In this document: positions 38,658-39,258 of the stretch, in pieces
How positions within the stretch are numbered: position 1 is the stretch's first letter
Layout: each line of letters begins with the position of its first letter
IMG/VR virus record: IMGVR_UViG_3300029466_000004
Coordinates: 9,952 to 73,951 of that record
Length of the DNA stretch: 64,000 nt
DNA from: a virus
Lineage: Duplodnaviria; Heunggongvirae; Uroviricota; Caudoviricetes
Direction: 5' to 3' (one strand)
Translations under genes and position numbers: made by a program
The notes under the pieces: generated by a model
The model's database searches: none
What the model was told of the DNA's origin: nothing
The model's input: the letters and a program-made list of their open reading frames with translations, nothing else

Positions 38658-39258
38658 CGACTATTTCACATGGAGAATTGACTTCATTTTGTAGTCGGCT
38701 GGATATGTATAAATGTTGCATAGCTTGACTGCGACTATCAGGTATAAATATTTATAGCAAAGTGGTATGAATTGACTGAAATACCATAGGACATTACTGG
38801 GGATTAAATTGAGCAGGAACAGACCGAATCGGATGATACGACTATTCCAGCAGAATAATCCATAGATAGTTACTAGGATATATAAGCGTATATTATAATA
38901 AGTACGGTTGGCATACGAATTTGGTATAGCTAGGCGAGAATAAAATTGACAGGTGTCTTGACATATCTTGATTTTTGGGTGGTCTGATGGCTTAGCGACT
39001 ATCGCACCTCCCTTTCTCTAAAAGGCGAACGACTATTTCACACAAAAAATACACGACTATTTGACGCTAATTCGCAAGAAAACGCTACGACTATTACTCT
39101 GCGACTATCAGCGGACAGCTCGTTTCTATACTATATATAGGACTTTCAAATGTTGATCGTCTGACGATTTTACGACTATTCCACGACTATCTGCCGAGAT
39201 AAACTACGACTATTCCAGAAGCCGTTACGACTATTCCAGCCGGAACGCTGCGACTATT
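38658..39258. repeat. iteron cluster of ~14 CGACTAT(T) copies; candidate lytic origin or centromere
   Basis: copies at 38658, 38732, 38839, 38997, 39030, 39054, 39088, 39102, 39173, 39184, 39207, 39228, 39251; extended form TACGACTATTCCAG x3. Confidence 0.5.

Follow-up and report, generated by a model that had tools for sequence, protein, structure and literature searches.

A constant array of CGACTAT repeats behind the replication genes of an element with phage-plasmid features: possible accessory sites in a replication-control region

What function might a dense array of short direct repeats serve in the gene-free DNA that lies behind the replication genes of a phage? The question is raised by a 64,000-nucleotide stretch of the IMG/VR virus record IMGVR_UViG_3300029466_000004 (positions 9,952 to 73,951 of the record; hereafter the window). 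The element has phage-plasmid features, as it encodes a Rep3 initiator, a ParA, an RHH protein and a full phage gene set. Its repeats share the motif CGACTAT and follow the genes for a DUF6291 protein and for the helicase DnaB. We read the array tentatively as a set of accessory sites, bound by a factor that does not vary in the family, within a region that serves as lytic origin or in replication control, a possible rather than a probable assignment.

The CGACTAT repeats are real and non-random. The exact heptamer is present 16 times in the window, on the + strand every time, against 4.05 copies expected, and 0 of 100 shuffled sequences gave 16. Thirteen of the copies fall inside 38658-39258, where about 0.04 CGACTAT(T/C) would be expected by chance; beyond this region the motif is sparse, with only 3 copies in the rest of the window. 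The base following the heptamer is T in 9 of the 13 array copies and C in 4, and the 8-mer CGACTATT occurs 11 times in the window versus 1.1 expected. A preliminary description of the locus had counted about 14 iterons. The repeats are indeed where it had placed them, but the interval holds 13 and the fourteenth lies outside, at 38202. Its spacing of 20-35 bp gives way to a measured range of 11-157 bp (74, 107, 157, 34, 24, 34, 14, 71, 11, 23, 21 and 23 bp in order), and its extended motif TACGACTATTCCAG is matched as an exact 14-mer by only 3 copies (38837, 39205 and 39226). The AT-rich patch ctatatatag that it had noticed was located at 39129-39138, between the two five-site clusters of the array. 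The 791 sites collected from relatives give a family logo of T-R-CGACTAT-Y with weak preferences farther out, the core motif being the 9-base R-CGACTAT-Y.

No open reading frame (ORF) of at least 40 amino acids exists within 38634-39254 on either strand. The ORFs on the two sides (38173-38618 and 39254-39905) were considered as genes and rejected as non-coding, being unconserved as proteins and implausible in translation. Because these ORFs are unconserved, the gene-free stretch extends over about 1.7 kb, from ~38130 to ~39890, after the replication genes. The earlier placement of the array in non-coding DNA right after the replication genes, downstream of dnaB, is thus borne out, the end of dnaB lying 1.28 kb upstream of the array.

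The array is a constant property of the family. A scan of IMG/VR with the 14-mer found at least about 70 contigs with 7-14 copies in 700 bp. All 56 of the 56 family loci of at least 8 kb, which were fetched through DnaB, have at least 7 copies downstream of dnaB. After pooling of the loci at least 102 distinct arrays were available, with 9-16 copies each (median 12), and 1231 sites lie on the array strand versus 3 on the other. The array directly follows the replication module in every relative, one divergent relative included, and DNA past 39900 is common to only 8 of 70 loci. Farther away the array disappears: it is missing both from three loci whose DnaB is 55% identical and from phage Maintenon, all of which show just small repeats unrelated to it. 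Individual copies are retained in relatives at 0.65-0.98, with the exception of the 38732 copy (0.02), which sits in a window-specific insertion and is found in 2% of relatives. The outlying copy at 38202 has counterparts. In the 700 bp upstream of an anchor in the C-rich tract, 37 of 41 relatives with enough flank carry 1-3 copies, mostly 70-250 bp from the anchor. With the copies left of the C-rich tract, which most relatives have, the true length of the array comes to about 1.06 kb.

Purifying selection acts on the CGACTAT cores. Forty-six relatives with the window's DnaB type were each compared to the window, and the identity is 0.92 for the cores, 0.80 for the third codon positions of DnaB and 0.76 for the spacers of the array. 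The leader (38554-38657) stands at 0.88 and the right part of the conserved block at 0.70. As the cores exceed both the synonymous positions and the spacers, selection is placed on the cores and on a few other short segments. The columns of the palindrome TATACTATATATAG, in the spacer between the two clusters, are at least 90% conserved.

Does the array act as DNA or as RNA? Across the 102 arrays the short spacings take few values (11, 13, 14, 21, 23, 24 and 34 bp) and fall close to multiples of a period of about 11.5 bp; from these they deviate by 0.85 on average, versus 2.9 if uniform, figures that are indicative and carry no formal probability since the period was picked among three tried and the arrays are related. 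The window alone, with 8 spacings, has a mean offset of 0.88 from such multiples. This helical phasing is as expected for a protein bound on one face of double-stranded DNA. The array segment has no excess of RNA structure (z = +0.22 versus shuffles), 51 relatives folded together give a weak consensus in which compensatory pairs are few, and Rfam gave no match in 37900-40200 at E up to 5 except at chance level. The right flank (39266-39890) is modestly structured, with z = -2.4 on the + strand and -2.0 on the - strand. Being devoid of RNA structure, the array most likely acts as DNA, and on the same three results a large structured RNA was rejected for it.

If a protein reads these sites, which one may it be? 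The relatives are mosaic in make-up. When the proteins with exchangeable specificity were compared among them, the DUF6291 protein proved to have at least three types of N-terminal domain that barely align with each other. A further form is a close variant of the window's type, about 80% identical overall, with the same N-terminal domain and a different linker. DnaB has two alleles with 50% identity to each other. The same CGACTAT array accompanies all these DUF6291 forms and both DnaB alleles. Similarly, the small-terminase-like protein, which is related to the P22/Sf6 type (gp3 family) through distant homologues with PF16677 and has an NCBI cluster member named 'Terminase small subunit', is 97% conserved in most relatives. 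In one relative it is only 37% identical, the first 20 and last 25 residues being kept and the helix-turn-helix region replaced. The array is the same in relatives with the 37%- and 71%-identical proteins, and a small-terminase site is disfavoured on this ground. A motif that stays constant while initiator, helicase and small terminase are swapped is thus not the site specific to any of them. The unusual point is that no exchangeable specificity module is coupled to the array. Among the relatives, in which alleles of initiator, helicase and small terminase are freely exchanged, no other cis element seen is as invariant as the control region.

The proposal that the CGACTAT copies are iterons for the helicase-loader-like DUF6291 protein has to be given up in view of these exchanges. 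Cognate iterons of DUF6291 or DnaB are rejected by the allele swapping, and several linker variants hold repeats of their own within the gene. The GATACGAATGGTAT motif of the window's gene is limited to relatives in which the identity of the DUF6291 protein to that of the window is 93% or more. The close variant has GATGCAAAC repeats in its linker-coding DNA and a third type has GTCAGCTCATC repeats there; in a fourth variant only a two-copy AAAAnCCCCCTTT-like repeat was seen by eye. Judged from their sequence, the linker repeats and the AT island in the DUF6291 gene are a better candidate for the initiator's cognate origin. In phage lambda the origin lies inside the initiator gene, and the linker repeats share this arrangement.

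The gene-free region nevertheless has its own connections with replication. With up to 1 mismatch allowed, GATACGAATGGTAT is found at only two places in the window, the linker of the DUF6291 gene and 38348-38380. The second place belongs to a cluster of boxes of the initiator-gene type, nested between the 38202 copy and the main array, 2.5 kb downstream of the boxes in the gene and left of the C-run tract. In relatives with the GATGCAAAC-type linker, GATGCAAAC takes the same external position, 10-40 bp from CGACTAT copies. The DNA is also easily melted. The 30-bp windows at 39517, 38874, 38743 and 39124 rank 2nd, 4th, 10th and 11th in instability in the 64 kb, so that the conserved block of 1.3 kb holds 4 of the 15 least stable windows where 0.3 would be expected from its size. 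The Rep3 origin (7th) and the linker of the initiator gene appear in the same list as internal positive controls. By the shared initiator-gene boxes and the AT islands the gene-free region appears tied to replication, and it is probably part of a phage-mode (lytic) replication origin or of a replication-control locus. The earlier suggestion of a candidate lytic origin is in this way upheld loosely for the region, on its AT islands and initiator boxes, and not for the repeats as iterons of the initiator.

In the reading proposed here, CGACTAT(T/C) would be a DNA-level site for one sequence-specific protein that is identical in all family members. The sites, in the same orientation and roughly on one helix face, would be spread over about 1 kb of a control region after the DUF6291-DnaB module. 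This region combines meltable AT islands between the repeats, a GC-rich hairpin segment, and terminators that would shield it from leftward transcription. The allele-linked boxes would be the initiator's own sites, while the CGACTAT sites would attract another factor, one that stays constant and is encoded either by the phage, as a conserved protein, or by the host. An architectural scaffold, handcuffing or copy control, and a polar fork barrier are examples of how this factor may organise the complex or regulate it. A bolder version, which we consider quite unlikely, makes the array a constant landing pad uncoupled from initiator, helicase and small terminase, perhaps a polar fork barrier or a handcuffing site for a mode switch. 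If true, the element would thereby change over between the plasmid mode (Rep3) and the phage mode of replication, or pass from theta replication to the concatemer-forming kind.

Several observations weigh against an origin or replication-control function. Changes in the DUF6291 N-terminal domain, the linker or DnaB are not accompanied by changes in the motif, while iterons in known phage and plasmid origins are adjacent to the initiator and co-vary with it. No cognate protein for the CGACTAT sites was found. The external boxes are irregular, for 4 of 9 loci with window-type boxes in the gene are without external ones, one locus with a different initiator allele has window-type external boxes, third-allele relatives have neither motif externally, and at some loci the boxes are of the other type or of both types. 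Centromeres, packaging sites and promoters can also have AT islands and phased repeats. The GC skew gave no signal. Apart from these points, a cluster of DnaA boxes was considered and rejected, as no such boxes exist in the block and the CGACTAT motif has no DnaA-box match. A replication-terminator-like protein is annotated in phage Maintenon, and no PHROG match to such a protein was obtained among the element's unannotated early proteins.

Known origins resemble the locus in part. The oriV of RK2 has single iterons, small clusters and five-iteron clusters, followed by an AT-rich and GC-rich region, and incA of P1 and incC of F are control arrays. As in these iteron origins, the repeats here have one orientation, occur as isolated sites and five-site clusters, are spaced near 1, 2 and 3 helical turns (11, 23 and 34 bp), and adjoin AT islands and a GC-rich segment. 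On the other hand, the conserved core here is 9 bp and not 17-22 bp, there is no adjacent co-varying initiator, DnaA boxes are lacking, and the element's Rep3 has other iterons 18 kb from the array. Among the features that mark an iteron origin, conserved non-coding direct repeats and an AT-rich unwinding element are found at this locus, and co-variation with an adjacent initiator is not. The Sfi21-type ori of Streptococcus thermophilus phages, the lactococcal 'Per' origins and the SaPI ori are non-coding and lie after the replication module; in the SaPI ori the iterons flank an AT-rich region 3′ of the helicase gene. The array likewise is non-coding, downstream of an initiator-helicase pair, and has repeats flanking AT-rich DNA. 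Bacillus phage SPP1 has oriL inside the initiator gene and oriR elsewhere, and here too a second set of initiator-type boxes is found outside the initiator gene. However, the repeats of the Sfi21, Per, SaPI and SPP1 origins are sites of the initiator or of the Rep helicase and change with it, whereas CGACTAT stays constant. As a separate observation, the boxes in the DUF6291 gene together with the downstream set look like an in-gene origin plus a second site in the style of lambda or SPP1.

The family is very common in human-gut data, where single protein clusters at 90% identity have more than 3,000 members and at least 497 IMG/VR stretches encode a relative of the family's RHH protein. The protein that reads CGACTAT, once named, would show how two replication modes, or segregation, are coordinated. 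The array may also be a cis element useful for vectors in uncultured gut Firmicutes, and if a host protein binds it, the motif would be a handle on the host as well.

Partition is the alternative that survives best, and we regard it as unlikely. The array would be a centromere, alone or among dispersed sites as in the phage-plasmid N15, at which the RHH adaptor builds the segrosome for ParA. The element does encode a type Ib-like ParA and a protein with a C-terminal RHH domain. The latter is 84-96% conserved in at least 80 related contigs, 12 of them array carriers, so that a candidate for an invariant binder is at hand. The short direct repeats, 5+5 around a central spacer with phasing of about 11 bp, recall parC of R1, where the RHH protein ParR binds 11-bp iterons in a 5+5 layout. 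More generally, the centromeres of RHH proteins (R1 parC, the omega heptads of pSM19035, parH of TP228) consist of one short asymmetric motif in many copies of one orientation, and the likeness to type Ib/II systems extends to the 5+5 arrangement, the periodicity and the presence of ParA and an RHH protein. Known RHH centromeres, however, are contiguous and lie beside or upstream of the par operon, while the CGACTAT array is discontinuous, with gaps of 11-157 bp, and 20 kb away from the par genes. One would look for an autoregulatory operator in 15.8-22.9 kb, and this interval has no CGACTAT. Moreover, the RHH gene itself holds a far more centromere-like, 10-bp-phased element, an array of RGCC (mostly AAGCC) motifs. 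These motifs fall in different reading frames, and the variability of third positions is 0.098 against 0.159 in the RHH domain. The RGCC array is probably a DNA-level element and, on its sequence, a nearer centromere candidate for ParA and the RHH protein. For these reasons of distance, irregularity and absence from the par/rep region, the parS-like site suggested at the outset for ParA and the RHH protein is a weak proposition.

Sites of a host protein with no relation to replication are decidedly improbable. The protein might be one of nucleoid organisation or silencing, a sporulation regulator, or the reader of an oriented translocase- or Chi-like signal. Invariance across swapped phage modules would fit a binder encoded by a shared host, and so would the strict orientation bias and selection that falls almost only on the cores. 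A search of 185,579 representative genomes, on the other hand, revealed no triple motif cluster from a relative or from a gut Firmicute chromosome; most of the 67 genome matches are regular tandem repeats, and sequence in common with the window was seen in none of them. The motif is unlike DnaA boxes, it is not enriched elsewhere in the phage (3 copies outside the region), and to our knowledge it matches no Spo0A, parS or known Chi motif.

An RNA-level element is very unlikely. In that case the rightward early transcript would enter the region and its 13 ACGACUAUU motifs would be a platform or sponge for an RNA-binding protein, or the block would code for a large structured non-coding RNA. Every copy is on the sense strand of the upstream early operon, and no convincing + strand terminator was found upstream of the array. 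The right half of the block folds above shuffles on both strands, as given above, and contains invariant hairpins, one with a GAAA tetraloop; RtcB and a RAGATH-5 RNA are encoded nearby. This has to be set against the structural results for the array segment, none of which favours RNA even at permissive Rfam thresholds, and against the spacing steps of about 11.5 bp, a property of the double helix and not of RNA. A strong conserved promoter was not found in the block either, where there are weak candidates only, among them weak TATAAT matches at 38874-38905 on both strands.

A packaging site, at which the conserved P22/Sf6-related small-terminase-like protein would bind both five-site clusters and the cut fall between them, is highly improbable: the two clusters around an AT-rich spacer do resemble the pac of P1, where 4+3 hexamer repeats flank the cleavage region, but the array has no terminase gene around or beside it (the small-terminase-like gene is 7 kb away and the large terminase 8.4 kb, whereas P22-like systems have pac inside the small-terminase gene), it remains unchanged with the 37% allele whose DNA-binding region is swapped and with the 71% alleles, and contig starts are scattered around it, which fits circular or permuted assemblies and does not map virion ends. 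A physical genome end at the array was considered and judged unlikely from the same scatter, the apparent ends inside the array being storage-chunk cuts.

The coordinates of the array, of the block around it and of the relevant genes are collected in Table 1.

Table 1. Features of the array region and of the element (window coordinates).
Feature	Coordinates	Strand	Remarks
RHH protein	16740-17366	-	next to parA; C-terminal RHH
RGCC (mostly AAGCC) array	17040-17235	-	inside the RHH gene by parA; 12 of 13 in exact 10-bp register, 190 bp
ParA	17883-18653		type Ib-like
Rep3 initiator	18952-20073		own iterons downstream
Rep3 iterons TCCACnnnnTTGTACACC	20074-20198		about 21-23 bp, AT island adjoining; plasmid-type origin
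Small-terminase-like protein	30739-31491		250 amino acids; early region
DUF6291 protein	35375-36154		replication module
Linker repeats in the DUF6291 gene	35767-35900		GATACGAATGGTAT (35767-35838) and TATCTGWATCTGAT, then AT island (35870)
DnaB	36151-37377		DnaB_C E=2.6e-50
Outlying CGACTATT copy	38202-38209	+	C-rich tract and initiator-type boxes lie to its right
Second cluster of initiator-gene-type boxes	38339-38400		GATACGAATGGTAT with TGGTA/TACCA inverted parts
C-run tract	38400-38480	+	G-runs on the - strand; then hairpin CCTCAAACAA/TTGTTTGAGG at 38474-38498
Conserved non-coding block	38554-39885		in essentially all relatives; DNA on either side variable
Main CGACTAT(T/C) array	38658-39258	+	singles 38658 and 38839; window-specific 38732; then two five-site clusters
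CGACTAT starts	38658, 38732, 38839, 38996, 39030, 39054, 39088, 39102, 39173, 39184, 39207, 39228, 39251	+
AT-rich island GGATATATAAGCGTATATTATAATAAG	38874-38905		between array copies; 4th least stable 30-bp window
Left five-site cluster	38996-39108	+	sites 38996, 39030, 39054, 39088, 39102; spacings 34, 24, 34, 14
Inter-cluster spacer	39110-39172		AT-rich palindrome TATACTATATATAG at 39125-39138, easily melted island
Right five-site cluster	39173-39258	+	sites 39173, 39184, 39207, 39228, 39251; spacings 11, 23, 21, 23
Two invariant hairpins	39277-39316		GGGC-GAAA-GCCC (39277-39292), GCGGC-GGTA-GCCGC (39301-39314)
GC-rich segment	39335-39445	+	CCGCCGGGCTGACCC / GCTGACC units, copy number variable
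AT-rich island TTATATACATTATTATAAATTATAATAGGG	39517-39549		2nd least stable 30-bp window
Two consecutive conserved intrinsic terminators	39829-39885	-	leftward transcription; right border of the block
Large terminase	47670-49337		then structural genes

Some of these features deserve a few words. The core of the C-run tract is present in 49 relatives; the tract has at least eight runs of C4-C6 on the + strand, with a potential for G-quadruplex or R-loop formation, and adjoins the initiator-type boxes. The pairs of the two hairpins at 39277-39316 are invariant in 50-51 of 51 sequences. The second hairpin, read on the - strand, is followed by a T-run and is terminator-like, just before the array. 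It also contains GGCGGTAG, the core of the enterobacterial ops element, which is probably a coincidence. The Rep3 iterons are of a different motif from the array, as had been stated in the preliminary description.

Besides the genes in Table 1, the window codes for repressors and for a long rightward early operon with ERF, SSB and a PAPS-reductase-like protein. Right of the gene-free stretch there is an accessory region of mixed orientation, followed by RtcB, the large terminase and the structural genes. The small-terminase-like protein is encoded 16 kb upstream of the large terminase and has an AT-hook-like N-terminus, KRGRGRPP. Tail-module DNA at 2-1637 recurs at 55979-57614 with 89% identity and an offset of 55,977 bp, and related contigs measure 54-61 kb; from this a genome unit of about 56 kb follows, and the window comprises more than one unit, in two variants. 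Positions 2164-2686 and 58138-58660 are also repeated, the tail-module recurrences being 80-89% identical overall, and the two variants may represent a tandem arrangement or an assembly walk across strains.

No relative was found among the 185,579 representative genomes in two scans, nor any close cultured relative. Judged by the large terminase, the closest cultured phage (52% identity) has [Clostridium] innocuum as its host, carries an integrase and has no such array. Ribosome-binding sites in the window are strong and of the GGAGG type. Together, these sites and the terminase of the [Clostridium] innocuum phage point only to Firmicutes as the probable host.

Other observations concern the neighbourhood of the array. 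A RAGATH-5 RNA of Rfam (53.9 bits, gathering 50) lies at 40206-40256 on the - strand, between two small leftward genes and 0.3 kb right of the conserved block; a literature search for the family and for RAGATH-5 returned nothing specific. RtcB (46144-47358) is located between 85%-identical repeats (45883-46104 and 47363-47584) immediately upstream of the large terminase, and the cassette looks like an insertion with duplication. The 222-nt repeats were considered as an RNA element and rejected: they are a duplicated gene of 53 amino acids plus downstream AT-rich DNA, with no RNA family match. The 7-mer CAGACCG has 37 sites on both strands versus 5.7 expected (shuffle maximum 17), for instance at 38589, 38609 and 38820. 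It shows neither an extended consensus nor a strand bias and may mark modification or restriction, serve as a recombination signal, or reflect composition. An Rfam tRNA call at 12337-12407 (44.5 bits), without ARAGORN support, borders a GC-rich segment (56-59%) at 10-16 kb. Finally, a near-perfect palindrome of 39 bp (44565-44603) is found in the least stable DNA of the window, upstream of a serine invertase (45005-45586), and may be the crossover site of this DNA invertase.

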